Source: a virus (taxonomy: Duplodnaviria; Heunggongvirae; Uroviricota; Caudoviricetes). Taken from it: DNA of 40,357 bases. The notes under the pieces were generated by a model, which was not told the origin of the DNA, searched no databases, and was given only the letters and a program-made list of their open reading frames with translations. This document shows positions 1 to 39,092 of this stretch, piece after piece. The translations under genes were made by a program, and so were the position numbers. The DNA lies in the IMG/VR virus record IMGVR_UViG_2740892106_000010. One strand, 5' to 3'. Every line of letters starts with the position of its first letter. The stretch's first letter is position 1.

Positions 1-1251
1 GTGCTTACCGATACAAAATTAAAAAACCTCAAGCCGCAGGACAAACTGTACAAGGTCTCCGATCGTGACGGGCTGTATGTAGCTGTGCTTACGTCAGGCA
101 CGGTCTCGTTTCGCTATGACTACCGTATCAACGGTCGCCGCGAAACACTGGTAATCGGGCAGTATGGGCGTGACGGTATCAGCCTGGCAGAAGCGCGAGA
201 AGAACTGATTGCTGCAAAGAAGCTGCTTAAAGCAGGCCAGTCACCGGCTGCGGCTAAACGTGACGGTATCAAAAAGATTCGTGGTGCCGAGACGTTTGCG
301 GTACATACCGACAGTTATATGAAACATGTCATCCTGGCTGACAGTACCCGCGCAATGAAGCAGGTGGTGATCGACCGTGACATACTTCCGGTTCTTGGCA
401 ACAAAATGATGACTGAAATTACCACATCGATGGTTCGTGATTTGTGTGACCGGATTGTCGAACGCGGCGGCCGGGCAACAGCAGTGCAGGCCAGGGAGAT
501 CATCAGCAGCGTATACCGTCATGCCAATGACCGTGGTCATGGTTTGTTTAATCCTGCGGCTGACATTAAACCTTCGTCTATCGCCATATTTAAACCACGA
601 GAGCGAACACTGACACCAGAAGAAATTGGTCTGTTCTTCCGCACGCTGGATGCCATTGGTGCTATGGGCACTATGAAAATGGCTTTAAAGCTGGTGCTTA
701 TCACTATGGTTCGTAAAGGCGAATTCACCAATGCAACGTGGGATGAAATAGATTTTAAAAAATGGACATGGACAATTCCTTCAGACCGCATGAAGGGAAG
801 CCGGGCGCACGTTATTTACCTGCCTAAACAGGCACAGGATATATTGGTTGGGTTGCAGATGTGCGCTGGTGGAAGTGAATATCTGGTTCCTGGTCGTTAC
901 AATTTCCGGAAGCCATTATCTAATGCCGCGCTGAACTCTCTGATCGACAGAACGGTGAAAATAATAAATGAAGATGGTGAGCATATTCAGGGCTTCACCG
1001 TACACGATATGCGCCGTACAGCCAGTACGTTGTTGCATGAGGCTGGTTATCCTTCAGACTGGATTGAAAAGGCTCTGGCACATGAGCAGAAAGGTGTGCG
1101 CGCCGTATATAACAAAGCGGAATACGCCAGACAGCGCGCCTACATGTTGCAGCAGTGGGCCGATATGATTGATTCCTGGATTAACGGGGAGCATACGGAT
1201 CTGATTCCGTTCTCCCCGTCGAAGTTTGAGAAGTGGATGGCGGGGGAATAA
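1..1251 (+). CDS. int: Tyrosine recombinase (phage integrase); 5-prime end may be clipped by the window edge
   Basis: 416-aa ORF beginning with GTG at position 1; C-terminal catalytic region with HDMRRT and VRAVYNKAEY motifs typical of the R-H-R-Y tyrosine recombinase fold; N-terminal arm-binding-like region. Confidence 0.88.
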   Translation: MLTDTKLKNLKPQDKLYKVSDRDGLYVAVLTSGTVSFRYDYRINGRRETLVIGQYGRDGISLAEAREELIAAKKLLKAGQSPAAAKRDGIKKIRGAETFAVHTDSYMKHVILADSTRAMKQVVIDRDILPVLGNKMMTEITTSMVRDLCDRIVERGGRATAVQAREIISSVYRHANDRGHGLFNPAADIKPSSIAIFKPRERTLTPEEIGLFFRTLDAIGAMGTMKMALKLVLITMVRKGEFTNATWDEIDFKKWTWTIPSDRMKGSRAHVIYLPKQAQDILVGLQMCAGGSEYLVPGRYNFRKPLSNAALNSLIDRTVKIINEDGEHIQGFTVHDMRRTASTLLHEAGYPSDWIEKALAHEQKGVRAVYNKAEYARQRAYMLQQWADMIDSWINGEHTDLIPFSPSKFEKWMAGE

Positions 1252-1254
1252 CGT

Positions 1255-1449
1255 TTAATAGTTCTGCTGATTTTCTTCCATCTCTGCTTCTGCTGCCAGT
1301 GATTCAATTTTGTTTTCGAATATTGCTGACAGTGTTGCAAATTCAGCATCAGTGACAGCGGGAATTGGAACAAACCTGATCCCGCTGTGTGCAAGCATGT
1401 TTGCAGTTTCAAGGCATTTTCTTAAATCTGCTGGTGATGCCATGTTCAT
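1255..1449 (-). CDS. Small acidic hypothetical protein (64 aa)
   Basis: Internal ATG of track ORF 1255..1569; its ATG overlaps the stop of the upstream methyltransferase gene (ATGA overlap), suggesting translational coupling. Confidence 0.4.
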   Translation of the reverse strand: MNMASPADLRKCLETANMLAHSGIRFVPIPAVTDAEFATLSAIFENKIESLAAEAEMEENQQNY

Positions 1450-2096
1450 GCAGCACGCTCCCGCCCCTGGTTGTCTGTTGGTGACAGCGGAGAATTGCTG
1501 AATGCATTTGTTAATCCGCCAATATCCAACGCGTATCCAGGGTGTAGTTGCACTGCCGAGTCTTCGCACTGATTACCCCAAACATCGAAGCCATGAGACG
1601 ACTGGCGGGCGAACAGTTCAATGCGAGAAACATCGCCTAACAATTGCACAAGTTTTTCACGAACGACATCTGGTTTTCTTGAGTGCTCAAGCCGCGGTGC
1701 GGTAAATGACTGAACGATCCCTGCATTAATGCGCGGAGGTAGTTTTCCCTTTACCGCAAACAGGCAATCTTCACTATTGGCGCGAGTCATGTGTCCCATA
1801 CCCATAACCAGTTTATCTGGTTGTCGACTACCACATTTTATCCACGTGAAGCCCTTCATGGTCATAAGACGAAATCCCCAGGCTTCAACAACTTTTAGTG
1901 CTTCGAGTGGTTGTGTTGGCACCCACCACATGGCCAACAGACAGTTTTCAGCGGCCAAATCCCACACAGGAAGGCGGCAGATATCCAGCACACTCATAAC
2001 TGGATATTTAAAACCGGCACCGCGATTACCATCTGCGGCTTTGTCCCGGTATACCCATGGTGGATCTGCATAGATTAGCGTGTATTTCTTAGTCAT
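1446..2096 (-). CDS. MT-A70 family DNA N6-adenine methyltransferase
   Basis: 216-aa ORF with the DPPW catalytic motif (LIYADPPWVY) near the N-terminus, as in phage Dam-like methylases. Confidence 0.85.
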   Translation of the reverse strand: MTKKYTLIYADPPWVYRDKAADGNRGAGFKYPVMSVLDICRLPVWDLAAENCLLAMWWVPTQPLEALKVVEAWGFRLMTMKGFTWIKCGSRQPDKLVMGMGHMTRANSEDCLFAVKGKLPPRINAGIVQSFTAPRLEHSRKPDVVREKLVQLLGDVSRIELFARQSSHGFDVWGNQCEDSAVQLHPGYALDIGGLTNAFSNSPLSPTDNQGRERAA

Positions 2097-2388
2097 AAAC
2101 CACCCCGCAACATCCTATACCGCTATAGTCTCCACGGCGAAGGCCGTTACCTTTTGTGATACATTGGTCCCTGCGAACCGCGATCCTTGCACGCTCAACA
2201 TCACCAGAAGCAACATCCATACACTGAAGCCAAAGGTGGGCGGCAATGCGGAACTGCCCTTTTTTCTCTCTTTCAATCGCGCGTTTTTCGAACTCTATCG
2301 CCGCAGGAGTAACGGCGATAACCTTTGAAGGACGGCGCATTGAAACCTTGTTCATGTGATATTTTTCAAGTCGGCTTAACTTTCTCAC
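2089..2388 (-). CDS. Hypothetical protein
   Basis: 99-aa ORF with a GAGAGGG Shine-Dalgarno before a GTG start; an in-frame ATG at 2355 is an alternative start. Confidence 0.4.
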   Translation of the reverse strand: MRKLSRLEKYHMNKVSMRRPSKVIAVTPAAIEFEKRAIEREKKGQFRIAAHLWLQCMDVASGDVERARIAVRRDQCITKGNGLRRGDYSGIGCCGVVYD

Positions 2389-2497
2389 TTAATCCAACCC
2401 TCTCTGAAAATTAATGCCAGCAGATAAAGCCATGCTGAAACAGAGGCCAGGAATAAGTACCATCCTGACCATTTGCTCCAGTGCCTTAGCAGCGCAC

Positions 2498-2746
2498 TCA
2501 TGCAGCGTTGCTCACAGGACGATATACACGTTGCTGAACAGGAGGCTTTTTACCCTGGAACTCTGCCGGGCTTGCTGCCTGACGTTCATCAAGCCAACGC
2601 TCAACTTCGTCACGGTTCCATGCGCAGCGTTTGTCAGTGATATACCAGCGTTTAGGAAATTCCCCTGCGCGCTCCATACGGTCGATAGTGCTCCATGACA
2701 GTGGCACCACCGCCAGGAGTTCCTTCTTACCTAATGCACCTTTCAT
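2498..2746 (-). CDS. AlpA/Xis-like small HTH DNA-binding protein (excisionase or transcriptional regulator family)
   Basis: 82-aa ORF with GAGG RBS; sequence LSWSTIDRMERAGEFPKRWYI...WNRDEVERWLDER resembles the AlpA/excisionase winged-helix family. Confidence 0.65.
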   Translation of the reverse strand: MKGALGKKELLAVVPLSWSTIDRMERAGEFPKRWYITDKRCAWNRDEVERWLDERQAASPAEFQGKKPPVQQRVYRPVSNAA

Positions 2747-2795: not shown

Positions 2796-3737
2796 TTACA
2801 TAGATGTTTCGTTTAATTCTTCCCGACGAACGCTGTAAACGTCGGTGGCTTTTGCCAGCAGTTCGTCATCATCTGAAAGTTTCTGTTCAATGTATTTGTA
2901 AGCCTTATCCAGTTCGGAGACAGTGCTGTAATTCATCGCTGCGCTGGTAAAGGCCATCAGCATTTCTTCTGGATCACGGCTATCCGCTTTACGCGTTTGC
3001 TCATCAGGCTTTTTCACTGGTTTAGCGTTGATCAGACTGTTCATTCCCGCAGCAGTGGTCGTTTGCGGAGTAATGTCTCGCTCAACGCGCGGTGCCGTTT
3101 CCTGTAATTCGTCAGGGGTGTAGACGCCCATGATTACGTCAGGACAGTGCAAGCGAGACCAGCGTTTTGTCGCAAGGTATGCGAGTTGTTGTTTCGGATC
3201 ACTGGCCCAAAGTGTGGAGTTTCTTACCTGTGCTTGAGACAGCATTAACTCAAGCACTCGAGGTTGATCCTCGCCCTTCATGGTTGCCCATACGCGAACA
3301 CCGCAGCCTTCTTCGTCTTTTAGAGTCCAGCCTGGTGCGATATATGGATTGCCGTTTTTGGATGTTTTCTCAACAAACTTACCGATCACGCGTTCCCACG
3401 GCCCGAACCACTCGTAGTTGATGCGATCTTTTGTTGGCGACATCGTTGAGATAACTGCGTTTACTAATTGGGCTTCATAACCTAGCGTGCCGTTCACAAC
3501 ATGGGTTTTCTGAGCCACGGCAAACGGGTTCATTCCCCACTGCGCAGCCTGCATTGCCACGGCCATGCAATCAGCTGGTTTCCCGGCGAGGTGCGCCGGT
3601 ACCGTTACGCGGCTTTGCGCCATTACCTCGGCGAATTTCATCAGTTGGTTCAAGCCGTCTGGGCTGAAAATAGTTGCAGCAGTTCCAGCGATTGCTGTGT
3701 CTACTGGTGCGTTGATGTTTGCGATGTCGTTGCTCAT
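2796..3737 (-). CDS. Single-strand annealing recombinase (RecT/Bet-like)
   Basis: ATG at 3737 overlaps the stop of the upstream exonuclease gene (ATGA); size and position immediately downstream of a RecE-type exonuclease match a phage recombination module; family assignment is from memory of similar proteins, not a search. Confidence 0.6.
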   Translation of the reverse strand: MSNDIANINAPVDTAIAGTAATIFSPDGLNQLMKFAEVMAQSRVTVPAHLAGKPADCMAVAMQAAQWGMNPFAVAQKTHVVNGTLGYEAQLVNAVISTMSPTKDRINYEWFGPWERVIGKFVEKTSKNGNPYIAPGWTLKDEEGCGVRVWATMKGEDQPRVLELMLSQAQVRNSTLWASDPKQQLAYLATKRWSRLHCPDVIMGVYTPDELQETAPRVERDITPQTTTAAGMNSLINAKPVKKPDEQTRKADSRDPEEMLMAFTSAAMNYSTVSELDKAYKYIEQKLSDDDELLAKATDVYSVRREELNETSM

Positions 3738-4555
3738 ATGTACATATCCTGTTTGCGTGCCCACTCAGGGCGTTTAATGATTTCCACACCGCCCCATTCA
3801 TCATTGATGCGGCATTCGTGATAGGTATTCAGATCCCGGCGGAACAGAGCGTGCCCGGCATCGACATCCTGCGCATCCAGCTCGAACACGCGTACCGGAT
3901 ACCGACCACAATCAATGCTTTCGCTCACGGCAAGAAAGAAAAAACCATGCGGCTGACCAGTAACCCTCATTGCGCCTTCGCGGTACATTGCGTCCTGCAC
4001 GTGGTAGCGGAATTCCTCGATGTGGCGTGCAAAACGGTCCATATCTGCAACCTTTTTCACGTCGACGATCACGTTGTGCTCGTTCAGCCATTTGTCTGGA
4101 CGAATTCGGCACAACTCCCCCGTCTCTTCATCGTTCCAGTACATTGATGCTTCGCAGTAACCAGGTGCTTCCAACATCCAGCGTGCCGCCGGGTGAGCCA
4201 TTGCGCTATCACGCATCAGCTCCAGTTTCCGCCACTGCTCTGCATCAAGTACCGAAATCCCCATATCCGCAATATCACGAAGAAATGCCTCTTCGTCAGC
4301 TTTACCTTGTTTCGTCCGACGTTCGAATTTCGGTGAAACAATGAAGCGTTTGTCGAACTCTCCAGGCTCCAGAAGCAGACAGTGCAATGCGGTTCCCATA
4401 TCCAGTGCAGACTTTTTCTCTTCGTCTTCTGGTGCTGCCTGAACCCATTTAAGAAGCGCCGGATTCTTGGCAACCATGTCCAGTTGCGACTTACTCACGC
4501 CGTCACCGGCGTGGTAGTCTTCGTTGCTGATGTCGAAATAAATTCCCGGTTTCAT
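3734..4555 (-). CDS. PD-(D/E)XK recombination exonuclease (RecE C-terminal domain / YqaJ-like)
   Basis: 273-aa ORF with AGAGGGA RBS; N-terminal FDISNEDYHAG...SKSQL motif and IVDVKK motif typical of phage PD-(D/E)XK exonucleases. Confidence 0.7.
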   Translation of the reverse strand: MKPGIYFDISNEDYHAGDGVSKSQLDMVAKNPALLKWVQAAPEDEEKKSALDMGTALHCLLLEPGEFDKRFIVSPKFERRTKQGKADEEAFLRDIADMGISVLDAEQWRKLELMRDSAMAHPAARWMLEAPGYCEASMYWNDEETGELCRIRPDKWLNEHNVIVDVKKVADMDRFARHIEEFRYHVQDAMYREGAMRVTGQPHGFFFLAVSESIDCGRYPVRVFELDAQDVDAGHALFRRDLNTYHECRINDEWGGVEIIKRPEWARKQDMYI

Positions 4556-4851
4556 GCCGCGTCCCTCTGCCCATCAAGCTGATCAGCCAGATCCCAGCGG
4601 GCGATAATTGCCATTGCCTCTCGCCGGTAGGAATCCATCAGTTCTTCGAACTCTGGACTGTCTTTAGCGGCCTCCAGTACTTCCTGGCGAACGCCTTTAC
4701 CTGTTACAGCGTCGAAAGTTGAGGCCAGTTGATGAAGCCGGATGCTCTCGATCAGTTCAACTTGTCGGTCATATAGCTGTTCTGACAGGCGGTAGTCCTT
4801 GTCGAATGCCAGCATGATTTTTTGAAGATTTTTCTGCTGATTAACGTTCAT
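4552..4851 (-). CDS. Hypothetical early protein
   Basis: Track ORF 4552..4866 trimmed to the ATG at 4851, which has a strong GGGAGGG RBS; stop overlaps the start of the exonuclease gene. Confidence 0.5.
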   Translation of the reverse strand: MNVNQQKNLQKIMLAFDKDYRLSEQLYDRQVELIESIRLHQLASTFDAVTGKGVRQEVLEAAKDSPEFEELMDSYRREAMAIIARWDLADQLDGQRDAA

Positions 4852-4853
4852 TA

Positions 4854-5006
4854 TCAGCCCTCCCATATCTCGTTATCGTTGGCCACATCGCGAGCTTCTT
4901 TGCTGACGAAAGCCCACTTAATGCCTTCCTGTAAGGTGCGGAACTTCCAGCTCATGAATCCGCATGCAGTAACGCAGTACCAACCGTTGATGATTTTCCA
5001 CTGCAT
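4854..5006 (-). CDS. Small hypothetical protein (50 aa), first ORF of the leftward early operon
   Basis: ORF below the track length cut-off; GAGGT-like RBS upstream of ATG at 5006; lies directly downstream of the leftward early promoter. Confidence 0.3.
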   Translation of the reverse strand: MQWKIINGWYCVTACGFMSWKFRTLQEGIKWAFVSKEARDVANDNEIWEG

Positions 5007-5025
5007 AACTTGTTACCTCGGTCTG

Positions 5026-5102
5026 TTACCGTTGAGGTAATAATTATGCGTATTTGGTTTGATGTCAATAGATATGAGTTAAAAAAATTACCCATTAGGT
5101 AA
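5026..5102. promoter_or_regulatory. Leftward early promoter bracketed by two TTACC-N5-GGTAA palindromes
   Basis: Perfect palindromes at 5026..5040 and 5088..5102; on the minus strand a consensus -35 TTGACA (plus coordinates 5063..5068) and a TAATTA/AATTAT -10 about 17 bp downstream, with the -10 abutting the 5026 palindrome. Confidence 0.55.
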
Positions 5103-5114
5103 TAGTATAGGCAA

Positions 5115-5138
5115 TAAAAAAGCCGCCAGAAGGCGGCT
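5115..5138 (-). terminator. Rho-independent terminator after the repressor gene
   Basis: GC-rich hairpin AGCCGCC-agaa-GGCGGCT followed on the minus strand by a T-run, just downstream of the stop at 5160. Confidence 0.6.
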
Positions 5139-5159
5139 TACTTACTGAAAAATATGATT

Positions 5160-5744
5160 TTATTGTTTGTTTTTTTCGTTCTGGTTGATGACAAATTCAA
5201 TGTAACTTTCGATCTTTGCTTTCTCGGTTTCGGGTAACAATGCGTAGCGCGAGCGGTCATAGTTGATGGTCGCAGGGTCGTGCGGGTGAATCAGTAATTC
5301 ATAGCCGTGACGCCCGAATGCTGATGCAACATTCTCCAGGGTGGAAATGGAAACACTGACCTCATTGTTTAACAGGCGGCTGATTGTCACCTGGGCGACG
5401 CCGGATGCGCGGTGAAGTTTTCCCTGAGTTGAAAGGTCGCGGCTTTCGCTCATCCAGCGTTCCAGGTTGTGAGCCGCCAGCTGACCAATGTCGCTTGGGC
5501 CGACAGGCTGAAAACCTTCCTGAGAAAGCGAGCGATCGATATCAAGCCAGTTACGTGGTTTATTGGCGGCAGCTTCAATTTTTCGCGCAACCTGGTCGCC
5601 GATAACCTTCTTGCCAAGAGCCCAGCGGTTTACCAGATTTGCCTGAGTTCCAAGTTTTTCTGCCATCCGCGTCTGAACACCATTGAATTCACGGTCGATC
5701 AAGTCGTTGAGATTTTGCCTGCGGACGTCCTGGATACTTTTCAT
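5160..5744 (-). CDS. Prophage repressor candidate with two helix-turn-helix (XRE-type) domains and no peptidase S24 domain
   Basis: 194-aa ORF; two HTH-like segments (QTRMAEKLGTQANLVNRWALGKK and VAQVTISRLLNNEVSVSISTLENVA); divergent from a cro-like gene with operator-like palindromes between them; no Ala-Gly/Ser-Lys autocleavage module evident. Confidence 0.7.
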   Translation of the reverse strand: MKSIQDVRRQNLNDLIDREFNGVQTRMAEKLGTQANLVNRWALGKKVIGDQVARKIEAAANKPRNWLDIDRSLSQEGFQPVGPSDIGQLAAHNLERWMSESRDLSTQGKLHRASGVAQVTISRLLNNEVSVSISTLENVASAFGRHGYELLIHPHDPATINYDRSRYALLPETEKAKIESYIEFVINQNEKNKQ

Positions 5745-5799
5745 TTTCTGGAAAATCGCCTCATATATGAATCAGTAGATGATTCAATTTAAAGCAATA

Positions 5800-5862
5800 T
5801 TACCCAACAGGTAAATGCACCTCATGGGTAACTATCCTTGATTTTTGTTACCTTATGGGTGA
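5800..5862. promoter_or_regulatory. Immunity-region operators between the divergent repressor and cro-like genes
   Basis: Three adjacent sites: TTACCcaacaGGTAA (5800..5814, perfect), GCACCtcatgGGTAA (about 5817..5831, degenerate left half) and TTACCttatgGGTGA (5848..5862, one mismatch); a TTGATT -35-like hexamer lies between them. Confidence 0.6.
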
Positions 5863-5898
5863 ATATTTATTATCTGAAATAAATATCAGGCAATAGCT

Positions 5899-6129
5899 AT
5901 GAGCGATAACGGACATTTCGATTTCAAAAAGCACTGGCTTGCACTTACTCCGGATGAGCGTGAAGCCTTCGCACAGGAAGCCGGAACGACGAGTCACTAT
6001 ATCCAGACTCACTTAACAGGTAAGCGCAAAATGCCAGGTAAAGTATTGATGAATGGGCTTTTTAAAGCCTGTAAAACAAGACAATGGCTGCGCTCAAAAG
6101 CAGAACTGGCATACTTCTTCTACTCATGA
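5899..6129 (+). CDS. Cro-like small HTH regulator
   Basis: 76-aa ORF divergent from the repressor; HTH-like segment AQEAGTTSHYIQTHLTGKR; followed by an intrinsic terminator. Confidence 0.55.
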   Translation: MSDNGHFDFKKHWLALTPDEREAFAQEAGTTSHYIQTHLTGKRKMPGKVLMNGLFKACKTRQWLRSKAELAYFFYS

Positions 6130-6151
6130 TATCCAGCTACAACCCTCTGTA

Positions 6152-6174
6152 GACCGCCACCCGGCGGTCTTTTC
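6152..6174 (+). terminator. Rho-independent terminator after the cro-like gene
   Basis: Hairpin GACCGCC-accc-GGCGGTC followed by TTTTC. Confidence 0.6.
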
Positions 6175-6184
6175 ATATCTATTC

Positions 6185-6199
6185 GTACCTCAAAGGTAA
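6185..6199. promoter_or_regulatory. Operator-like site GTACC-N5-GGTAA (one mismatch to the TTACC-N5-GGTAA palindrome)
   Basis: Lies between the cro terminator and the downstream replication genes. Confidence 0.4.
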
Positions 6200-6277
6200 T
6201 AAAAAACCAAATCTGGTTGATCAAATTTTCCAATTGTGCAAAATAGCCAATATCAATAACAAAAAGGGGCGGAAAAA

Positions 6278-6490
6278 TTGAAGATAGTAACCAGAATGGA
6301 GGCCGCAAAAGCCGGGTTAAATCGCTATTTCACAGGAAAGCGGTGCCGTCACGGCCATCTCTCTGAAAGGTATGTTCTGAACGGAACATGTGTTGAATGT
6401 GCAATGAATAGCGCCAACCGCCATCGTAATGAATTTGCTTGTGCACTAAAGAGTGCAAGAGGGGAAACCTATGGCAAGCAGCTGGATTAA
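6278..6490 (+). CDS. Small Cys/His-rich hypothetical protein
   Basis: 70-aa ORF (TTG start in track; alternative ATG at 6296); C-x-H-G-H...C-x-x-C pattern suggests a small zinc-binding protein; sits where cII-like genes occur in lambdoid phages. Confidence 0.4.
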   Translation: MKIVTRMEAAKAGLNRYFTGKRCRHGHLSERYVLNGTCVECAMNSANRHRNEFACALKSARGETYGKQLD

Positions 6491-7301
6491 GGTTGAAGTT
6501 ATCACTCCTGATAAACCTGAAATTTTTCAGATAGCAGAAATTCTGGGTATTGATCCAGATGCTGTTCTTGGAAAGCTGGTTCGTATATGGGCATGGGCTG
6601 ACCAGCAAACAATAGACGGTAACGCTGGCAGCGTTACAAAAGGAGTACTTGATAGACTCGCTTTTATTACAGGATTTGCTGACGCCCTCATTAGCGTCGG
6701 ATGGCTTGCTTATCATGACGGCAAACTAATTCTTCCAAACTTTGAGCGACATAATGGAGAATCATCGAAAAAACGTGCACTTACGAATAGAAGAGTGGCA
6801 GAGCATCGAAAACGAGTAACGCAAAAAGTAACGCCAACAGCGTTACAAAAGGAGTTACCAGAGGAAGAGGAAGAGGAAGATATATATAAAACCCCACACA
6901 TAGCGCACGTGCGCGAGGGTGCTCCGACCAGTGAAGCGAACGGTATGCCGTTGCAGGTGGCTGAACCTGAATTTCTGGATGGCCTGAGTGAACCCATCGG
7001 GAAATTTCCGATGACCGATGGCTGGCATCCGTCGCCGGATTTTCGACGGCGTGCTGCGCTGTGGGGAACGGCCCTGCCGGAACCGGAATTTACACCTGCT
7101 GAACTTGCTGCATTCCGGGATTACTGGATGGCTGAGGGCAAAGTGTTCACGCAGGTTCAGTGGGAACAAAAATTCGCCAGGCACGTAAATCATATCAGGG
7201 GAAAATCAAAAAACGCCGGGAAAAGCGATGAGCTTGACTGGAATAACACTGACTGGATAGAAGGGGTGTGGGATGAAATCAACTCCAGAACTTCTCAATG
7301 A
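6471..7301 (+). CDS. Replication initiator, lambda O-like replisome organizer
   Basis: ATG at 6471 with GGGGAA RBS, in frame with track ORF 6453..7301; acidic linker (EEEEEED); contains DNA-level iteron-like repeats as lambda O does; immediately upstream of a lambda P-like gene. Confidence 0.65.
   Translation: MASSWIKVEVITPDKPEIFQIAEILGIDPDAVLGKLVRIWAWADQQTIDGNAGSVTKGVLDRLAFITGFADALISVGWLAYHDGKLILPNFERHNGESSKKRALTNRRVAEHRKRVTQKVTPTALQKELPEEEEEEDIYKTPHIAHVREGAPTSEANGMPLQVAEPEFLDGLSEPIGKFPMTDGWHPSPDFRRRAALWGTALPEPEFTPAELAAFRDYWMAEGKVFTQVQWEQKFARHVNHIRGKSKNAGKSDELDWNNTDWIEGVWDEINSRTSQ
6619..6855. repeat. Iteron-like repeats (putative replication origin) inside the O-like gene
   Basis: Palindrome GTAACGC-N5-GCGTTAC at 6619..6637 and 6828..6846, an extra GTAACGC at 6816..6822, and the 16-mer GCGTTACAAAAGGAGT at 6631..6646 and 6840..6855 read in different codon phases; followed by a GA-rich then AT-rich stretch. 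Confidence 0.5.
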
Positions 7302-31058: not shown

Positions 31059-31060
31059 TA

Positions 31061-31635: not shown

Positions 31636-31660
31636 GGCCGCTTTCGCGGCCTTGTTTTTA
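31636..31660 (+). terminator. Rho-independent terminator
   Basis: Hairpin GGCCGC-tttc-GCGGCC followed by a T-rich run. Confidence 0.6.
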
Positions 31661-31819
31661 ACGAATGCCACCGCCGCCCGGACGGGAATCCGCAGAACGC
31701 CCACCGCAGCGGGAGCCGTCAGCAGCAGTGTCGCTGTCGTGCTGACAACGACCGGCAAAGGCCTGAGTTGAAGCTACCAGAGACAACAAAACGAACAGTG
31801 CAGCAAATGCTTTTTTCAT
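31658..31819 (-). CDS. Small secreted Cys-containing peptide (53 aa)
   Basis: Internal ATG of track ORF 31658..31924 giving MKKAFAALFVLLSLVASTQAFA signal peptide followed by a Cys/Gly/Asp-rich tail; weak RBS. Confidence 0.3.
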   Translation of the reverse strand: MKKAFAALFVLLSLVASTQAFAGRCQHDSDTAADGSRCGGRSADSRPGGGGIR

Positions 31820-31911
31820 TGTGAAATTTCCATCTATAAGCCACCTCAATGTGGCGTCAATGAGTGTAGCACTGACTTTTGTTTCGTCCACAAAAAAGCC
31901 CGCGCTGCGGG

Positions 31912-32457: not shown

Positions 32458-32611
32458 AATTTTCCTTATTGTTACGAGAATCAAAGAAAGCGCGGGATAC
32501 GCGACTTGCGTGATCTTTTGTCATAGTAACTTTTACGTACTCTACGCTTCCATTGAAAGAACGTCTTGCGGCAGCTTGCGCTCTACGCATCTGCAATTTT
32601 TCGTTTCGCAT
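32432..32611 (-). CDS. Small basic protein (59 aa) overlapping the start of the downstream gene
   Basis: ORF below the track cut-off with GAGGT RBS; overlaps the 181-aa gene by about 26 nt in another frame. Confidence 0.25.
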   Translation of the reverse strand: MRNEKLQMRRAQAAARRSFNGSVEYVKVTMTKDHASRVSRAFFDSRNNKENYEFVCVAE

Positions 32612-32671
32612 GACATTACCTCATATCTCATAAGTTCATTACACGGATTAATAAAAATGAAACCAATCCGT

Positions 32672-32714
32672 TTACCCTTGAGGTAATAGTACGCTATTCA
32701 CCCACAGTCTGCAA
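32672..32714. promoter_or_regulatory. Leftward promoter with overlapping TTACC-N5-GGTAA palindrome
   Basis: Perfect palindrome at 32672..32686; on the minus strand TTGCAG (-35-like), a 17-bp spacer and TACTAT (-10-like) abutting the palindrome. Confidence 0.45.
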
Positions 32715-32758: not shown

Positions 32759-33493
32759 TCAGAAGAACCCTGCCTTGTCGTTGATGTACTCCGCGTGCGT
32801 CTGGATATCACGCAGGCATTTGCTCACACCAACGATGTAGCAGAACATGGTGGTCAGCTCCGCCGCCGCGCCCGATACGTCGTGCCCGTCGTCCTGTAAC
32901 TGGTTCAGCAGATTCATCAGCAGTGAGTTCTCCGTCAGGCCGAGAACACCAGACGGAGAATGAATCAGACTGCGGTAGCCGGGCTTCAGTGGGGCACTGT
33001 ATTCTTTTTTGTCTTCCAGCTTGATCGCCTCCATAATGGCGGGCATGAATTTTTCAATTACCTGAGTGGCCTTTGATAAATCAGCTCCACCTGAGAGACG
33101 AACATCTCCGCTGACATTTGCGGGTTTTCTGTCGAAGTAGCAATCTTCCAGTTTTTCGAAGACCTCCCACGCTTTTTCAGTCTCAAGAATTTTCGCATGT
33201 CGTGCTGCACCGCGAGCGGTCCATAAGAAAAGATGACTTACTTTTGGTGCAATATTAAGCAAACCTCTTTGAGAGGACTCGTTCTTAAATGCTCGTAATT
33301 CTTCGCCTATCAGCTTGAAACAATGTTTTCCCTCAATGAATCGATCTGCATTTCGTTGATAGTTTTGACGAATCAGTTTGGGTTCTGTGTCATACAAATC
33401 AGCAAGCATTTCTGTAGTCATTACAGGGATGTTGCAATGAGTTGTTATCGGCAACTTATCAATAGCTATATTACGCATTTTCATTGCCTCCAT
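32759..33493 (-). CDS. Antirepressor-like protein (ORF6N/Rha-type N-terminal domain plus C-terminal domain)
   Basis: 244-aa ORF; N-terminal region (IPVMTTEMLADLYDTEPKLIRQNYQRNADRFIEGKHCFKL) resembles ORF6N/Rha antirepressor domains; C-terminal about 70 aa is paralogous to the small protein encoded at 34292..34549. Confidence 0.65.
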   Translation of the reverse strand: MEAMKMRNIAIDKLPITTHCNIPVMTTEMLADLYDTEPKLIRQNYQRNADRFIEGKHCFKLIGEELRAFKNESSQRGLLNIAPKVSHLFLWTARGAARHAKILETEKAWEVFEKLEDCYFDRKPANVSGDVRLSGGADLSKATQVIEKFMPAIMEAIKLEDKKEYSAPLKPGYRSLIHSPSGVLGLTENSLLMNLLNQLQDDGHDVSGAAAELTTMFCYIVGVSKCLRDIQTHAEYINDKAGFF

Positions 33494-33977
33494 CTTTCAC
33501 GACGAAATAGCAATTATCTTTATAATCTAACTGGATGAACTTTATGTTTTCAGGGAGTTTTACAGAAAGAGTTTTTGCACAAGCAAAACCAAAATCTGCG
33601 CCAGAAGCATCCATATACCTTAATAATTGTTTTAATGCTGAAGGAGAAAAAGTATCTACCTTCACCTCAACAGGGTAACCATCTTTTGTTTTTAGGTCTG
33701 GTTGACCTGGTCCACCAAGTATTTCAGCGTTAAGGTATTTTGCTATTTCTGGATAAGCGTTGTATTCAGAGCGTAGTTTTGCCTTGTTATCGACTGCTAG
33801 TTGCATAAGATGATCAAACAAATTGGTATCTAAATCTGCCCCTTCATCCCACATTCTATTTCTACAGCTAATCAATTCACTGACCAGTGGTGCACTTTCT
33901 TGCCTTAGCATAAGAAGGAGTGGAGAATTAGAAATTAACCAATACAGATCGTCGTTTGAGATTTTTTGGCCTGGCAT
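33471..33977 (-). CDS. Hypothetical protein with PD-(D/E)XK-like motif
   Basis: 168-aa AT-rich ORF with GAGG RBS; D-x(n)-EVK motif (DGYPVEVKVD); overlaps the start of the Ant-like gene. Confidence 0.45.
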   Translation of the reverse strand: MPGQKISNDDLYWLISNSPLLLMLRQESAPLVSELISCRNRMWDEGADLDTNLFDHLMQLAVDNKAKLRSEYNAYPEIAKYLNAEILGGPGQPDLKTKDGYPVEVKVDTFSPSALKQLLRYMDASGADFGFACAKTLSVKLPENIKFIQLDYKDNCYFVVKDGGNENA

Positions 33978-34132
33978 AGCGATACCTCTACTAGTAAGTT
34001 ACCCACCACCGCAACGCCAATTGCTGGTGGTGAACTGGACAAGGTTGGCGTACCGGCCTAGTAGGTACCGGCGCACCTTTCGGTGCCCCTGCCCAGCCCA
34101 CCATAATTCGGATATGACTGTGCTATACGCAT

Positions 34133-34154
34133 AAAAAAACCACGTCTGGCGTGG
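34133..34154 (-). terminator. Rho-independent terminator (minus strand)
   Basis: Hairpin CCACG-ccaga-CGTGG followed on the minus strand by TTTTTTT. Confidence 0.55.
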
Positions 34155-34245
34155 TATGCGCCTACTAGTAATCCGGGACGCCAATCCCGGCACTGGATTT
34201 TGCCAGTGCCCGATTACTATGGCACAAGAGGAGTGCGATGTAAAT

Positions 34246-34288
34246 TTACCGCAAAGGTAAATATAAGCACTCCATTTGGTAATTGCAA
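34246..34288. promoter_or_regulatory. Leftward sigma70-like promoter with overlapping TTACC-N5-GGTAA palindrome
   Basis: On the minus strand: -35 TTGCAA (34283..34288), 16-bp spacer, -10 TTATAT (34261..34266), then the perfect palindrome TTACCgcaaaGGTAA (34246..34260) over the predicted start site. Confidence 0.45.
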
Positions 34289-34744: not shown

Positions 34745-37207
34745 ATGACGGTCTCAACAGAAGTTGACCACAACGAATACACAGGTAACGGCGTTACGAC
34801 ATCATTTCCGTATACCTTCCGTATTTTCAAAAAATCCGACCTGGTTGTTCAGGTGTCTGACCTTAACGGTAACGTTACAGAACTAGTGCTGGATGCTGGT
34901 TATACGGTAACAGGGGCGGGAACTTATAGTGGCGGTGCAGTGGTTCTTCCGTCGCCGCTTGCTGCTGGCTGGCGAATCACGATAGAGCGTGTGCTTGATG
35001 TGGTGCAGGAGACTGATCTTCGCAATCAGGGAAAATTTTTCCCCGAAGTTCATGAGGATGCATTTGACTACCTGACGATGCTGATCCAGCGATGTTTTGG
35101 GTGGTTCAGACGTGCATTGATGAAACCATCTTTGCTTGCAAAATATTACGATGCAAAGCAAAACAGAATATCTAACCTTGCAGATCCATCATTTGAGCAG
35201 GACGCTGTAAATAATCGCTCAATGCGCAATTATGTCGATGCTGCAATCGCCGGGGTTGTTGGTGGTTTTGGTTGGTTTATTCAGTATGGTTCTGGAGCGG
35301 TATACAGAACACTCCAGGATAAGATGCGTGATGGTGTCAGCATTAAGGATTTTGGAGCTCAAAATGGAATCTTAAATGATAACAAGGAGGCTTTTACAAA
35401 ATCATTACATTCGTTTAGCAGTGTTTTTGTTCCGGAAGGGGTATTCAATACATCTTTAGTTTCTCTTTCACGTTGTGGCTTGTACGGAACAGGTGGGGGA
35501 ACGATAAAACAGTATGACAGAGATGGTAATCATCTGGTTTTTAACATGCCCGATGGTGGCATGCTTAGTACGCTAACAATTATGGGAAATAAATCAGATG
35601 ATAGTGTGCAGGGACACCAGGTGTCATTTTCAGGTGGCCATGATGTATCGGTTAAAAATATCAGATTTACAAATACGCGAGGACCAGGATTTAGCTTGAT
35701 CGCTTATCCGAATAATGGTATTCCGTCAGGTTACATTGTTAGAGATATAAGAGGAGAGTATTTAGGGTTCGCAAATAATAAAAAAGCAGGTTGTGTGCTT
35801 TTTGATTCATCGCAAAACACGCTAATTGATGGTGTGATAGCCAGAAATTATCCTCAGTTTGGTGCAGTGGAACTTAAAACAGCAGCAAAATATAACATTG
35901 TCAGCAATGTTATTGGTGAAGAGTGTCAGCACGTTGTTTACAATGGAACTGAGACGGAAACTGCCCCAACGAATAATATCATTAGCAGTGTAATGGCTAA
36001 CAACCCAAAATACGCCGCAGTAGTTGTTGGCAAGGGGACTGGTAACCTGATTTCGGATGTGCTGGTTGATTACTCTGAATCGGACGCAAAGCAGGCGCAC
36101 GGCGTCACCGTTCAGGGAAATAATAATATTGCCAGTAATATTCTAATGACTGGGTGTGATGGGAAAAATGAATCAGGAGATCTGCAGAAATCTACAACCA
36201 TTCGTTTCTTAAATGCTGCAGGCAGTAATTATGCGTCAATATTCCCCATGTATAGTTCTTCTGGCGTGGTTACCTTCGAGGAAGGGTGTATCAGGAACTT
36301 TGTTGAAATTAAACATCCGGGTGATAGAAATAATATTCTGAGTTCTGCATCAGCGGTGACTGGTATTTCCAGTATAGACGGCACTACAAATAGCAATGTT
36401 GTTCATGTCCCTGCTCTTGGTCAGTACATTGGGACTATGTCAGGGCGTTTTGAATGGTGGGTTAAATATTTTAACCTTGCTAACCAGACGCTTGTTTCTG
36501 CAGATAAATTCAGAATGCTTGCTGAAGGCGATGTATCTCTGGCTGTGGGAGGCGGTATAAGTTCGCAATTGAAATTATTCAATAGTGATAATACTAAAGG
36601 CACTATGTCGCTAATAAATGGAAATATTCGAATATCTACTGGAAATTCAGAATATATACAGTTTTCTGATTCAGCCATGACACCATCGACAACGAATACT
36701 TATTCTCTTGGGTTGGCTGGTCGTGCATGGTCGGGGGGATTTACCCAGTCAGCATTTACGGTGCTGTCCGATGCGCGTTTCAAGACTGCTCCAGAGGTTA
36801 TTGATGAGAAAATACTGGACGCATGGGAAAGAGTGGAATGGGTTTCATACCAGTACCTTGACAGGATCGAAGTGAAAGGTAAAGACGGAGCAAGATGGCA
36901 CTTTGGTGCAGTTGCGCAGCATGTTATCAGTGTATTTCAGAATGAAGGCATAGATGTGTCACGACTGGCATTTATCTGTTATGACAAGTGGAATGAGACC
37001 CCGGCAGAATACAGGGATGTGACGGAAGAAGAGCATTCTGCAGGAGTTTACCCACTTATACAGACAAAGGTTCTGGTACGCGAAGCCGTCGAGGCTGGTG
37101 AATGTTACGGTATCCGTTATGAAGAGGCTCTGATTCTGGAATCTGCGATGATGAGACGCAGGGTTAAAAAGCTGGAAGAGCAAGTTTTGCAATTAACAGG
37201 GAATTGA
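34745..37207 (+). CDS. Tailspike/tail fiber with beta-helix-like central region and C-terminal intramolecular-chaperone-like domain
   Basis: 820-aa ORF; conserved podovirus-type N-terminal adaptor region (YTGNGVTTSFPYTF); Asn/Gly/Ser-rich repetitive middle; C-terminal GARWHFGAVAQHVISVF...RLAF motif like peptidase S74 chaperone domains (recalled). Confidence 0.75.
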   Translation: MTVSTEVDHNEYTGNGVTTSFPYTFRIFKKSDLVVQVSDLNGNVTELVLDAGYTVTGAGTYSGGAVVLPSPLAAGWRITIERVLDVVQETDLRNQGKFFPEVHEDAFDYLTMLIQRCFGWFRRALMKPSLLAKYYDAKQNRISNLADPSFEQDAVNNRSMRNYVDAAIAGVVGGFGWFIQYGSGAVYRTLQDKMRDGVSIKDFGAQNGILNDNKEAFTKSLHSFSSVFVPEGVFNTSLVSLSRCGLYGTGGGTIKQYDRDGNHLVFNMPDGGMLSTLTIMGNKSDDSVQGHQVSFSGGHDVSVKNIRFTNTRGPGFSLIAYPNNGIPSGYIVRDIRGEYLGFANNKKAGCVLFDSSQNTLIDGVIARNYPQFGAVELKTAAKYNIVSNVIGEECQHVVYNGTETETAPTNNIISSVMANNPKYAAVVVGKGTGNLISDVLVDYSESDAKQAHGVTVQGNNNIASNILMTGCDGKNESGDLQKSTTIRFLNAAGSNYASIFPMYSSSGVVTFEEGCIRNFVEIKHPGDRNNILSSASAVTGISSIDGTTNSNVVHVPALGQYIGTMSGRFEWWVKYFNLANQTLVSADKFRMLAEGDVSLAVGGGISSQLKLFNSDNTKGTMSLINGNIRISTGNSEYIQFSDSAMTPSTTNTYSLGLAGRAWSGGFTQSAFTVLSDARFKTAPEVIDEKILDAWERVEWVSYQYLDRIEVKGKDGARWHFGAVAQHVISVFQNEGIDVSRLAFICYDKWNETPAEYRDVTEEEHSAGVYPLIQTKVLVREAVEAGECYGIRYEEALILESAMMRRRVKKLEEQVLQLTGN

Positions 37208-37279: not shown

Positions 37280-37684
37280 ATGTCATTCCAACTAACCAAT
37301 GAAACTTCAAATCAGTGGCTTAGTGTTAGTTCTCTTGCTGCGGTTATTGCAGGTGTCCCTCCGGAGGTTGCTTTAGGGGCTTTGGCTGGGGCGGTAATTT
37401 TTGTTACCTCTGCAGTAGAGTACCCCATCCGTCGCCGGGTGCTCCTGTCGATGCTCAGCTTTCTTTGCGGCCTTCTCTTTTACAAACCAGCAGCATCAAT
37501 TCTTATCGGCATAGCCAGCCTGATCCCTACCATCACGCAGGACTCTTTTGAAAAAGGGATTGTTTTCTCTGCAGGCGCATTCGTGTCAGCAATTGTCGCC
37601 GTGCGTATTGGCATCTGGCTCTATCACCGTTCCGATAATCCACGCGAGTTAATTCCGGGGAGAAAAGACGATGGTAACGCATGA
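37280..37684 (+). CDS. Holin-like membrane protein
   Basis: 134-aa ORF with 3-4 predicted transmembrane helices and a charged C-terminus; first gene of the lysis cassette. Confidence 0.5.
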   Translation: MSFQLTNETSNQWLSVSSLAAVIAGVPPEVALGALAGAVIFVTSAVEYPIRRRVLLSMLSFLCGLLFYKPAASILIGIASLIPTITQDSFEKGIVFSAGAFVSAIVAVRIGIWLYHRSDNPRELIPGRKDDGNA

Positions 37685-37979
37685 GTTTTTTTTGCTTATC
37701 ACCAATGCAGTTATTTGTACTGGCATAGCAATTCGCGTTGTCACATTCCGGCGTAACGGCTCTCAACATCGAAGATGGGGAGGGTGGCTTGCTTATTTCC
37801 TTATTGTTGCTGCGGCAAGTATTCCTGTTCGTGTCGTCTATGCAATCTGGTTACGCACGCCAATGGCTGTGGATTTATCTGAGGTCATTATCAACGCTGT
37901 CATGCTTGCCGCGGTTATTAAAACACGCGGTAACGTTGTTCATATTTTCAAAATATCGAGGTCTAAACATGGAGATTAA
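37671..37979 (+). CDS. Holin/antiholin-like membrane protein
   Basis: 102-aa ORF with 2-3 predicted transmembrane helices and a basic C-terminal tail; immediately upstream of the endolysin. Confidence 0.45.
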   Translation: MVTHEFFLLITNAVICTGIAIRVVTFRRNGSQHRRWGGWLAYFLIVAAASIPVRVVYAIWLRTPMAVDLSEVIINAVMLAAVIKTRGNVVHIFKISRSKHGD

Positions 37980-38598
37980 ACAATTCCAGCGAGCTGCTGG
38001 TATTAGCGAGGCGCTGGCCGCTCGCTGGTTCTCGCATATAACTTCTGCGATGAAAGAGTTTGGTATCAGCAAACCCGAAGATCAGGCAATGTTTATTGCT
38101 CAGGTCGGGCATGAGTCTGGTGGCTTCAACCGGTTGCAGGAAAATTTCAACTACAGCGTCACCGGACTGGCTAACTTCGTTCGGGCTGGGCGTCTCACCC
38201 AGGGACAGGCTAACGCACTGGGCCGCCGTGCTGGTGAGCCACCATTGCCACTTGAGCGCCAGCGCGCGATCGCAAATCTGGTGTACAGCAAACGCATGGG
38301 TAACAATGCCTCTGGTGATGGCTGGAATTACCGTGGTCGCGGACTTATCCAGATTACCGGTTTGAATAACTATCGTGACTGTGGAAACGGTCTTAAGGTT
38401 GACCTGCTGGAGAGTCCTGAACTGCTGGCGCAGGACGAATACGCGGCTCGTAGCGCGGCGTGGTTCTTTGCCAGCAAAGGATGCATGAAGTATACCGGCG
38501 ATATTGCACGTGTAACTCTGATTATCAATGGTGGCCGGAACGGCATCGACGACCGGCGCGCGCGGTACATCACTGCCAGTAAGGTGCTGGCGGTATGA
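37969..38598 (+). CDS. Endolysin, glycoside hydrolase family 19-like
   Basis: ATG at 37969 with GAGGT RBS (track ORF starts further upstream at 37738); motifs AQVGHESGGF and NYRGRGLIQITG typical of GH19-type phage endolysins (recalled). Confidence 0.8.
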   Translation: MEIKQFQRAAGISEALAARWFSHITSAMKEFGISKPEDQAMFIAQVGHESGGFNRLQENFNYSVTGLANFVRAGRLTQGQANALGRRAGEPPLPLERQRAIANLVYSKRMGNNASGDGWNYRGRGLIQITGLNNYRDCGNGLKVDLLESPELLAQDEYAARSAAWFFASKGCMKYTGDIARVTLIINGGRNGIDDRRARYITASKVLAV

Positions 38599-39092
38599 TC
38601 TGGGCATTCGCAAAAGCATACTGGAAACAGTTGGTTATCATGGCGATGCTTGCTGTTCTGGTCATATCAGGAGTTGTAGCCTGGAATGCACACGGCAGTC
38701 GTCAGTACGACGCCGGGTATGCGCAGGCACAGGAAGATCAGAAACAGGCTGATGATAAGGCCAGGTCACAACGTGATCAGGAGAAAACACAAATTGAACG
38801 TGAAGCACAGTCCCGTATCGATGTGGCGCGTGTTGATGCTGAGCATGCTAATGCCGCTGCTGACAGCCTGCGCGCCGAGCTTGACAAAACCAAGCGACTC
38901 GCCGAACACTATACCGGATCTTTCCCCACTGGCACGCCAGCCAGCAAGGTCATCGGTGTGCTCGCCGACATGCTTGAAGAAAGCAACCGAGTTTACAACG
39001 CAACAGCAGCTGAGGCTGAAAAGTATCGGATTGCAGGAGAATCCTGCGAACAGCAATACGATTCACTGAAGAAGCAAAAATCGTGGCACTGA
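38595..39092 (+). CDS. i-spanin (Rz-like)
   Basis: 165-aa ORF with N-terminal transmembrane helix and charged coiled-coil-like periplasmic domain; start overlaps the endolysin stop. Confidence 0.7.
   Translation: MIWAFAKAYWKQLVIMAMLAVLVISGVVAWNAHGSRQYDAGYAQAQEDQKQADDKARSQRDQEKTQIEREAQSRIDVARVDAEHANAAADSLRAELDKTKRLAEHYTGSFPTGTPASKVIGVLADMLEESNRVYNATAAEAEKYRIAGESCEQQYDSLKKQKSWH
38836..39069 (+). CDS. o-spanin (Rz1-like lipoprotein) embedded in the Rz gene in another frame
   Basis: Within track ORF 38686..39069: MLSMLMPLLTAC lipoprotein signal with lipobox Cys followed by a Pro-rich segment; exact start uncertain (38836, 38845 or 38851). Confidence 0.55.
   Translation: MLSMLMPLLTACAPSLTKPSDSPNTIPDLSPLARQPARSSVCSPTCLKKATEFTTQQQLRLKSIGLQENPANSNTIH

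Follow-up and report, generated by a model that had tools for sequence, protein, structure and literature searches.

An apparently complete prophage of the epsilon15/phiV10 type at the Escherichia coli guaA locus, with operator-like palindromes in front of most transcription units

What kind of element combines lambda-like early genes with virion genes laid out as in T7? The question is raised by IMG/VR record IMGVR_UViG_2740892106_000010, a 40,357-nucleotide stretch of caudoviricete DNA (the window). The original prediction, made from the letters alone, described a mosaic temperate element in which a lambdoid early and replication module is joined to a podovirus-like virion module. Our analysis leaves little doubt that positions 1–39196 hold the seemingly complete prophage of a temperate podovirus of the epsilon15/phiV10 (Uetakevirus) type, which a tyrosine integrase inserted between E. 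coli guaA and yfgI, at the 3′ end of guaA. This type is an already characterised phage group, which the original prediction did not recognise, and the prophage is an ordinary further member of it and no new kind of element. Rightward genes occupy ~5.9–31.6 kb and 34.7–39.1 kb, an early leftward block runs from 1.25 to 5.7 kb, and a second leftward block, of low GC content, occupies 31.6–34.6 kb. All coordinates are those of the window, and genes lie on the plus strand unless the minus strand is stated.

Nucleotide comparisons with phages were made against 50,697 phage records, and counts in E. coli refer to 5426 complete genomes. In megablast searches, positions 1–24604 were ~97% identical, over 79–86% of their length, to vB_EcoP_ZX5 (ZX5), HEMP4, phiv142-3, PAS61 and the sequenced prophage TL-2011b. 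Similarity to phiV10 begins at the small terminase gene (97.6%), and the left part of the window is 76.5% identical to Salmonella phage epsilon15. The right half is patchily similar to the same Uetakevirus-type phages, with at most 45% covered. NCBI taxonomy places phiV10, epsilon15, SPN1S and PAS61 in Uetakevirus. Short-tailed virions and a life cycle with lysogeny and induction are documented in the literature for ZX5, phiV10 and epsilon15. The temperate podovirus that had been predicted is therefore borne out by ~97% identity over 24.6 kb to isolated, lysogenising Uetakevirus podoviruses and by a repressor identical to that of ZX5. The head/tail module is carried by 557 of the 5426 E. coli genomes (~10%), and in 22 of the 5426, coverage of the last 16 kb of the window reaches 80% or more, with 98.7–99.6% identity among the matches listed.

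Position 1 of the window is the GTG start codon of the integrase gene (1–1251), whose product contains the Pfam domains Arm-DNA-bind_3, Phage_int_M and Phage_integrase and is 99.3% identical to the ZX5 integrase. At the other end, the attR core ATTGAGTGGGAATGATT occupies 39180–39196 on the plus strand, as the one exact match in the window (0 of 100 shuffles). The same sequence is the published attP/attB core of phiV10, epsilon15 and ZX5 (PMC9782041), and it is also found at the guaA stop codon of a related lysogen. The prophage therefore ends at 39196 and not at 39092, as first proposed; attL and the end of guaA lie ~190 bp to the left, outside the window. In NZ_CP019015.1, a 99%-identical lysogen, the element sits between guaA and yfgI-yfgH-yfgG (PGAP names). 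The flanking chromosome in the window (39287–40357, minus strand) contains yfgI and yfgH, two genes of the host (DUF5384, E = 4.1e-62, and glycine-zipper matches), and this region is found in 5422 of the 5426 E. coli genomes. The RefSeq record of TL-2011b (NC_019445.1) runs into host DNA, its positions 24257–25327 corresponding to 39287–40357 of the window; yfgI and yfgG are included, and yfgH is annotated there as a ‘DNA methyltransferase’.

The head module has the terminase genes in front, as predicted: those for TerS and TerL (12024–14170; PF03592, E = 1.4e-29; phrog_2 TerL, E = 1.1e-52) precede the portal gene at 15541. By BLASTP, TerS and TerL are 77% and 94% identical to epsilon15 gp1 and gp2, and the real start of TerS is probably at ~12105. 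TerL (12695–14170) was identified through PHROGs and its 94% identity to epsilon15 gp2 alone; Pfam gave no match at E ≤ 0.01 and a PDB sequence search was likewise empty. The small gene at 15320–15526 had been taken for one encoding a gp6.7-like protein, an identification without sequence support, as BLASTP against T7 gp6.7 was empty. Its 68-aa product is a homologue of epsilon15 gp3 (88% identical; phrog_831, unknown function). The portal protein (15541–17220) belongs to the T7 gp8 family (PF12236, Head-tail_con, E = 1.8e-187) and matches PDB chain 8ck0_A (E = 1.4e-178) and the portal of cyanophage P-SCSP1u (E = 1.8e-5). After a Bbp19-like small protein (17217–17513; PF25181) and a scaffold-like protein discussed below comes the major capsid protein (18220–19212), a member of the epsilon15 gp7 family (PF20911, E = 2.7e-149) whose nearest solved structure is that of BPP-1 (3j4u, E = 9.8e-129), with epsilon15 second (3j40, E = 2.8e-85). 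It is followed by a Bbp16-type cement protein (19264–19701; PF21190, E = 5.3e-46) and, by homology, an epsilon15 gp9-like protein (19712–20047). The expectation of a podovirus capsid is thus upheld in the form of the epsilon15/BPP-1 gp7 family, and its likeness to T7 fails at the sequence level.

Identity to epsilon15 is 43% for the major capsid protein (gp7) and 36% for the cement protein (gp8), and the flanking portal (81%) and adaptor and nozzle (85–88%) are far closer. The comparison indicates mosaicism within the head module, in which the capsid of the E. coli lineage is nearer to that of BPP-1 than to epsilon15 gp7.

The 233-aa protein encoded upstream of the capsid gene (17510–18211) carries the database label ‘protease’ or ‘peptidase’. 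Peptidase families in Pfam and NCBIfam were unmatched, and the label seems to go back to an early remark on similarity in the epsilon15 entry. Residues 13–98 are acidic, proline-rich and variable in length, with indels among close homologues. An AlphaFold2 (AF2) model, of low confidence (predicted local distance difference test, pLDDT, 43), is disordered towards the N terminus and purely helical in the C-terminal half; the model was too poor for a fold search, and a PDB sequence search was empty. At 330 aa, the major capsid protein is close in length to the 331- and 335-aa deposited chains of BPP-1 and epsilon15, which suggests that no large propeptide is removed. We infer that the 233-aa protein is a scaffold rather than a protease, the role given to it in the original prediction against the database label.

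In the tail, the gp11-like adaptor (20104–20709) matches the Carin-1 ‘Connector Protein’. Its AF2 model (34 homologues, pLDDT 87) was matched by Foldseek to T7 gp11 (7box_M; E = 1.1e-6, probability 1.00, template modelling score 0.56–0.60) and to gp11 homologues from other T7-like phages. The gp12-like nozzle (20709–23180) matches the Carin-1 ‘Tail Nozzle’ (PDB 8ck1, E = 1.4e-217), and its PDB matches are chains of Carin-1 and LME-1 only. Taken together, the Carin-1 virion chains in the PDB (portal, nozzle and connector) match at E values of 1e-26 to 1e-217. Adaptor and nozzle are 85% and 88% identical to epsilon15 gp11 and gp12. Downstream are two internal virion proteins of 154 aa (epsilon15 gp13-like) and 181 aa (T7 gp14 family) (23180–24189; phrog_308 and phrog_418, ‘internal virion protein’; PF24072, E = 2.5e-7), an 873-aa protein with an SLT domain (24189–26810; E = 1.5e-17), and further core proteins of 565, 850 and 186 aa recognised through PHROGs (26812–31621). 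A PDB sequence search with the 850-aa protein was empty, and an NCBIfam scan of ten virion proteins gave nothing meaningful. Sheath, tube and tape-measure genes are absent; the lone ‘tape measure’ PHROG match covers the SLT domain only. The T7-like gene order described at the outset is in place (portal, adaptor and nozzle, gp14-family protein, SLT protein, tailspike), and the family searches that the original prediction had proposed support a podovirus, with a T7 gp8-family portal, an epsilon15/BPP-1 gp7-family capsid and no long-tail genes.

The region from 24600 to 31620 has a GC content of 0.55–0.58, compared with ~0.50 elsewhere. With TL-2011b and epsilon15 it shares only distant similarity, in the first third of the SLT protein and towards the C terminus of the 850-aa protein. 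It has the appearance of an ejection-protein cassette that was exchanged en bloc, the left breakpoint falling within the SLT gene. Of the 5426 E. coli genomes, 64 carry it, 63 of them at 97.7–99.9% identity. The best phage relatives of the 565-aa protein come from Stenotrophomonas (39%) and Pseudomonas Ab31-type (31%) phages, and homologues at 72–91% identity occur in Cronobacter, Pseudescherichia, Enterobacter, Klebsiella, Citrobacter, Salmonella and Dickeya, all of them listed as ‘hypothetical proteins’. The idea that the cassette is unique was rejected, since it is missing from phage records yet common in prophages of Enterobacterales.

The tailspike (34745–37207) is chimeric, with a Uetakevirus anchor (residues ~1–180), a K5 heparosan-lyase β-helix (~185–675) and an S74 chaperone (675–735). 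Residues 199–675 match the K5 lyase KflA (PDB 2x3h, E = 4.9e-185) and 9vvr (E = 6e-225), and the Peptidase_S74 domain, an intramolecular chaperone, was found at E = 1.4e-13. The N-terminal 165 aa are 71% identical to epsilon15 gp20, and residues 185–817 are 56–57% identical to spikes of lytic coliphages (Kagunavirus, Kayfunavirus and Vectrevirus). The whole protein is not in any phage record; the exact 820-aa sequence is present on 58 E. coli contigs. The tailspike is probably a heparosan lyase of the ElmA type. ElmA, like the tailspike, is 820 aa long. The domain content suggests that the receptor is probably the K5 capsule, in contrast to the O antigen that phiV10 and epsilon15 use. The literature lists ElmA as a chromosomal or prophage-borne heparosan lyase of E. 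coli K5 strains.

How would such a prophage be controlled? The early region contains RecT (2796–3764, minus strand; PF03837, E = 2.5e-44), a PDDEXK/DUF3799 RecE-like exonuclease (3734–4555, minus strand; PF12684, E = 1.3e-22), a CI-like prophage repressor with two helix-turn-helix regions (5160–5744, minus strand; HTH_3, E = 1.2e-9) and, divergent from the repressor, a small Cro-like regulator (5899–6129; phrog_35 ‘transcriptional repressor’, E = 5.6e-13). Family matches in Pfam and PHROGs thus support the predicted integrase, RecET-like pair and repressor/cro in their places. The predicted O/P replication pair fared unevenly. P is confirmed as a lambda-P-family helicase loader (7273–8049; PF06992, E = 1.7e-55), and in place of lambda O there is a DnaT-domain replication initiator (6453–7301; PF17948, E = 6.5e-19; phrog_2509, replication initiation protein), for which DnaT was the sole Pfam family past the cutoff and the lambda O family was unmatched. 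The repressor is identical to the ZX5 ORF21 repressor at 194 of 194 residues, and the Cro-like protein is 100% identical to its ZX5 counterpart. In ZX5, overexpression of the repressor blocks the lytic cycle and abolishes free phage, and overexpression of the antirepressor favours the lytic cycle (PMC9782041). The layout is lambdoid in its divergent repressor and cro genes, its multipartite operators and its OL/PL region on the far side of the repressor gene. Parts of 9.0–11.5 kb are ~86–98% identical to Stx, P22 and mEp460-type phages among the matches sampled. The term lambdoid holds for organisation and protein families, and recent exchange appears, at the level of the DNA, only in the 9.0–11.5 kb accessory block.

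A 15-bp palindrome, TTACC-N5-GGTAA, indicates how repression may extend beyond the early genes. It occurs in 15 copies at no more than one mismatch, 10 of them exact; the expectation was 0.64, an enrichment of more than 20-fold, and none of 100 shuffles had as many. Most transcription units have copies in front of them, and, by the gene calls made in relatives, none of the 10 exact copies is within a gene. The copy at 12070 falls inside a mechanically called, TTG-started terS ORF (open reading frame) and upstream of the probable start near 12105. In the OL/PL-like region (5026–5139, minus strand), which lies downstream of the repressor-gene terminator (5139–5120), motif and promoter scans gave exact palindromes at 5026 and 5088 and a leftward promoter-like site at 5068–5040. 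The OR-like region between the repressor and Cro-like genes (5800–5873) has palindromes at 5800 (exact), 5817 (two mismatches) and 5848 (one mismatch), which overlap a rightward promoter-like site at 5845–5873. Further copies are found at 6185, 3′ of the Cro-like gene and behind a terminator at 6151–6170; at 8087 and 8149, before the DUF1064 gene; in tandem at 12070 and 12088, immediately 5′ of terS and behind a terminator at 12033–12050; at 15215, upstream of the portal operon and the 68-aa gp3 homologue; at 32672, upstream of the YafO-like unit; at 34246, at the antirepressor promoter; and at 34626, upstream of the tailspike gene.

Within 4800–15600, the three top sigma-70-like sites are 5068–5040 (minus strand), 5845–5873 and 8080–8107 (both plus strand). 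They overlap palindromes, except for PL, which abuts the copy at 5026, and in the plus-strand sites the spacer is filled by the palindrome. Operator-like palindromes inside sigma-70-like promoters, at most units, support the original prediction of host RNA polymerase under repressor control, and their positions would imply direct repression of late operons. The palindrome recurs at corresponding places in phiV10 (14 copies) and epsilon15 (15 copies). We had considered the dispersed palindrome as a new feature and rejected this, as the epsilon15 GenBank record already marks seven copies as ‘repressor’ binding sites; the network is therefore known at the level of annotation.

A likely route out of repression is encoded on the minus strand at 32759–34288, where promoter, Rfam and Pfam searches point to a unit resembling P1 immI. 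A promoter-like site (34288–34260) is followed by an isrK-like RNA (34133–34209; Rfam 68.1 bits, gathering threshold 50), a C4 antisense RNA (34023–34108; RF01695, 76.7 bits, gathering threshold 45), a 168-aa ORF downstream of the C4 RNA (33471–33977) and an ORF6N-domain antirepressor candidate (32759–33493; PF10543, E = 1e-18). Over a stretch of 103 aa, the last protein shares 85% identity with the ZX5 antirepressor tested by overexpression. DNA of the unit is conserved in phiV10, TL-2011b and EC.W1-9; the C4/isrK control unit is unannotated in the records of related phages.

These features suggest how the prophage may work. In the lysogen, the CI-like repressor would bind the 15-bp operators in the spacer or −10 region of sigma-70 promoters at OL/PL, at a tripartite OR/PR and at the post-replication, terminase, portal/head, antirepressor and tailspike units. 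With operators at nearly all units, host RNA polymerase would be kept off almost every transcription unit. Derepression could proceed through the P1-immI-like unit, with its C4 antisense RNA and ORF6N antirepressor. After induction, the DNA would be replicated with RecT, the RecE-like nuclease, the DnaT-type initiator and the lambda-P-like loader, and TerS and TerL would package it through the T7-gp8-family portal into an HK97-fold capsid of the epsilon15/BPP-1 type. That capsid would assemble on the separate scaffold protein, with the Bbp16-type protein as cement. A T7-like adaptor and nozzle would form the stubby tail; the gp13/gp14-like, SLT and large core proteins would be ejected, allowing the envelope to be crossed, and the cycle would end with holins, the GH19 endolysin and spanins. 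It is quite possible, as a tentative further proposal, that the prophage represents an epsilon15-like lineage so far without an isolated phage, with an ElmA-type spike for the K5 capsule, a capsid without a staple and an ejection cassette exchanged with prophages of Cronobacter, Klebsiella and Citrobacter, and with one repressor silencing every unit through about a dozen operators.

Several points weigh against this account. The prophage is known from its sequence alone, and its inducibility is a prediction. The repressor is predicted to bind the distal palindromes as well, where the Cro-like protein or another regulator could be the ligand instead. Families of N and Q antitermination proteins were unmatched among the proteins scanned, which covered small ORFs in part, and a late-gene activator was not identified. 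The likeness to T7 consists of order, size, profiles and one predicted fold and does not include pairwise similarity. BLAST-based intergenomic similarity is 62.6% to ZX5, 58.4% to phiV10, 57.8% to EC.W1-9 and 33.1% to epsilon15. The current guideline of the International Committee on Taxonomy of Viruses for a genus is at least 70% genome-wide nucleotide similarity to member species. This level is not reached by the prophage, nor within Uetakevirus as constituted, where the same estimate for epsilon15 and phiV10 is 36.1%. The prophage belongs to the epsilon15-like group as a species-level member in its own right, arguably on the border of the genus.

The two remaining points concern viability, and they are also what a defective prophage would predict. 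One is the ejection cassette (24600–31620), which has no nucleotide match in any of the 50,697 phage records, sensitive blastn included. The other is the gp10 staple: tblastn with epsilon15 gp10 and TL-2011b gp32 found no homologue in the window, and 20048–20103, the position of gp10 in relatives, holds a terminator hairpin alone. The gp10 gene is present in phiV10, TL-2011b, ZX5, HEMP4, PAS61 and Tyrion, in all but one of the related phage records, and in 433 of the ~557 E. coli genomes with the head/tail module. Together with the listing of ElmA as a chromosomal or prophage-borne enzyme, these observations raise the alternative of a phage of the same type that is cryptic and persists for its morons, its ElmA-like K5 lyase or its immunity. 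We consider this unlikely, if worth weighing seriously. Every essential module is uninterrupted, with ORF lengths as in functional relatives and without insertion sequences or obvious frameshifts, and attR is intact. The one related phage record that shares the gp10-less junction is a sewage isolate, EC.W1-9. The high conservation of the cassette, both among the 63 E. coli genomes and, at the protein level, across Enterobacterales, points to a working module maintained by purifying selection.

A genuine T7-supergroup phage (Autographiviridae-like) turned temperate would account for the gene order from portal, scaffold and capsid through adaptor, nozzle, gp13/gp14-like and large core proteins to the fibre, for a portal in the T7 gp8 Pfam family and for the gp14-family protein and gp11-fold adaptor. 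We regard it as very improbable. The original prediction that there is no phage RNA polymerase was upheld, as Pfam scans of all ten ORFs of at least 300 aa, each of which is accounted for, failed to match the single-subunit enzyme. Terminase precedes the head genes, and the capsid protein falls in the epsilon15/BPP-1 family and is accompanied by a cement protein. When 18 proteins of the window were compared by BLASTP with 13 virion proteins of T7 (gp6.7–gp17), nothing significant emerged, the best match being the SLT domain against gp16 (E = 0.02). Membership of Autographiviridae is excluded without the RNA polymerase that defines the family. A P22-like (Lederbergvirus) or other lambdoid podovirus prophage in place of an epsilon15-like one has a lambda/P22-style early organisation, a β-helix tailspike and stretches at ~90–98% identity (short ones in 10.7–11.5 kb from P22, other parts of 9.0–11.5 kb from Stx phages) in its favour, and can be dismissed as scarcely credible on the evidence of portal, capsid and tail families: portal, capsid, adaptor, nozzle and internal proteins all belong to epsilon15/BPP-1/T7-like families, no equivalents of P22 gp1, gp5, gp4, gp10 or gp26 were found, and whole-module nucleotide identity is restricted to Uetakevirus genomes.

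The remaining genes of the epsilon15/phiV10-type prophage are accessory or serve lysis. Behind the integrase gene are leftward accessory genes (1255–2746, minus strand), which by Pfam encode a DUF1382 protein, an MT-A70 adenine methyltransferase (1446–2096), a PerC-like regulator (2089–2388) and an AlpA-like regulator or excisionase candidate (2498–2746); their order is conserved in phiV10, epsilon15 and ZX5. Pfam, PHROG and promoter scans define a second rightward unit (8080–11983) with a promoter-like site (8080–8107), the DUF1064 gene and variable ea/nin-like accessory genes, among them that for a DUF551 protein (10691–11530). Just before the late genes, it encodes a 115-aa regulator (11636–11983; phrog_536 ‘transcriptional regulator’) without a Pfam match.

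Between terminase and head genes is an inverted insert of two genes (14261–14892, minus strand), one for a Gp49/Sf6 gene-66 family protein (14261–14617; PF13876, E = 1.7e-34) and one for tRNA-Arg(TCT) (14816–14892; ARAGORN; Rfam tRNA, 73.3 bits). An 83-aa plus-strand ORF in the region 14635–14892 overlaps the tRNA gene and is recorded as a hypothetical protein in relatives (phiV10p04, TL-2011b gp24 and ZX5 22176–22427); its annotation over the tRNA is probably a mis-call. The moron region (31658–32686), all on the minus strand, has a small ORF (31658–31924), a gene for a YafO-like toxin (31912–32484; PF13957, E = 1.1e-5) and, overlapping it upstream, a 59-aa ORF that is a possible antitoxin (32432–32611). 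The last two look like a moron or a toxin-antitoxin pair, with a palindrome at the putative promoter. The lysis cassette lies at the far right (37280–39092), where it had been predicted, and by Pfam begins with two holin-family proteins, followed by a GH19 endolysin (37969–38598) and a DUF2514 i-spanin (38595–39092). An embedded o-spanin with an LLTAC lipobox (~38821–39069) was recognised from the translation and from the annotation of phiV10 and epsilon15.

Mosaic temperate podoviruses of this kind are well described and common, and the prophage does not call for special study as a new system. Its ejection cassette, K5-lyase spike, operator network and lack of a staple deserve mention and leave the category unchanged. 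They tie a long-known type of chromosomal K5 heparosan lyase to an intact-looking Uetakevirus-like prophage, and they present the ejection-protein block and the capsid staple as exchangeable or dispensable modules. The genome-wide operator network would make repressor control of late genes directly testable; if true, silencing by a single repressor that includes the late virion operons would be a layout quite unlike the lambda cascade.

Comparison with known systems places the prophage closest to ZX5, phiV10, HEMP4, PAS61, phiv142-3 and TL-2011b, which have an identical gene order from integrase to spanin. With the ZX5/phiV10 group it shares ~97% identity over the int, RecET-like, immunity, replication, terminase, portal, capsid, adaptor, nozzle and gp13/gp14-like genes, as well as the att core, the guaA site and the palindrome network. 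It differs from this group in its ejection cassette (~24600–31620), in the absence of the gp10 staple, in a spike with a K5-lyase domain in place of an O-antigen-specific one and in the accessory genes at 8.5–11.5 kb; unlike phiV10, it has no O-acetyltransferase gene (oac) behind the tailspike. Counterparts of epsilon15 gp1–gp14 are found, syntenic one for one and at 36–94% protein identity by BLASTP, apart from the gp10 staple, which the prophage lacks. Epsilon15, the type species, likewise has a three-protein core (an SLT, a mid-size and a large protein) and has the att core and operator positions in common with it. O-antigen conversion genes are missing from the prophage, and its replication genes include a member of the lambda P family, whereas none is annotated in the epsilon15 record.

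More distant relatives share parts of the virion. BPP-1 (3J4U) has the capsid protein, the Bbp16 cement and the Bbp19-like protein in common with the prophage, and the portal, nozzle and connector chains of Carin-1 (8CJZ, 8CK0 and 8CK1) match its proteins; both phages have different hosts, and no nucleotide similarity to the prophage surfaced in the searches run. T7 is similar in the order and sizes of portal, scaffold, capsid, gp11–gp14, large core proteins and fibre, and it shares the portal Pfam family, the adaptor fold, a protein of the gp14 family and an ejected protein with an SLT domain. That domain is in the first large core protein in the prophage and in gp16 in T7. Unlike T7, the prophage is temperate, has no RNA polymerase, has its terminase genes upstream of the head genes and builds its capsid from another family, with a cement protein.

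The single-stranded β-helix lyase domain of the spike is homologous to KflA of coliphage K5A. KflA is the enzyme of a lytic phage, and its N-terminal anchor is of another type. The immI region of P1 and P7 (C4, icd and ant) likewise has a C4 RNA upstream of a small ORF and an antirepressor-type gene, and in both systems the unit is on the strand opposite the virion genes. In the prophage, unlike P1 and P7, the N terminus of the antirepressor is of the ORF6N/KilA-N type, an isrK-like element precedes C4, and the antirepressor promoter bears the phage's own operator palindrome.

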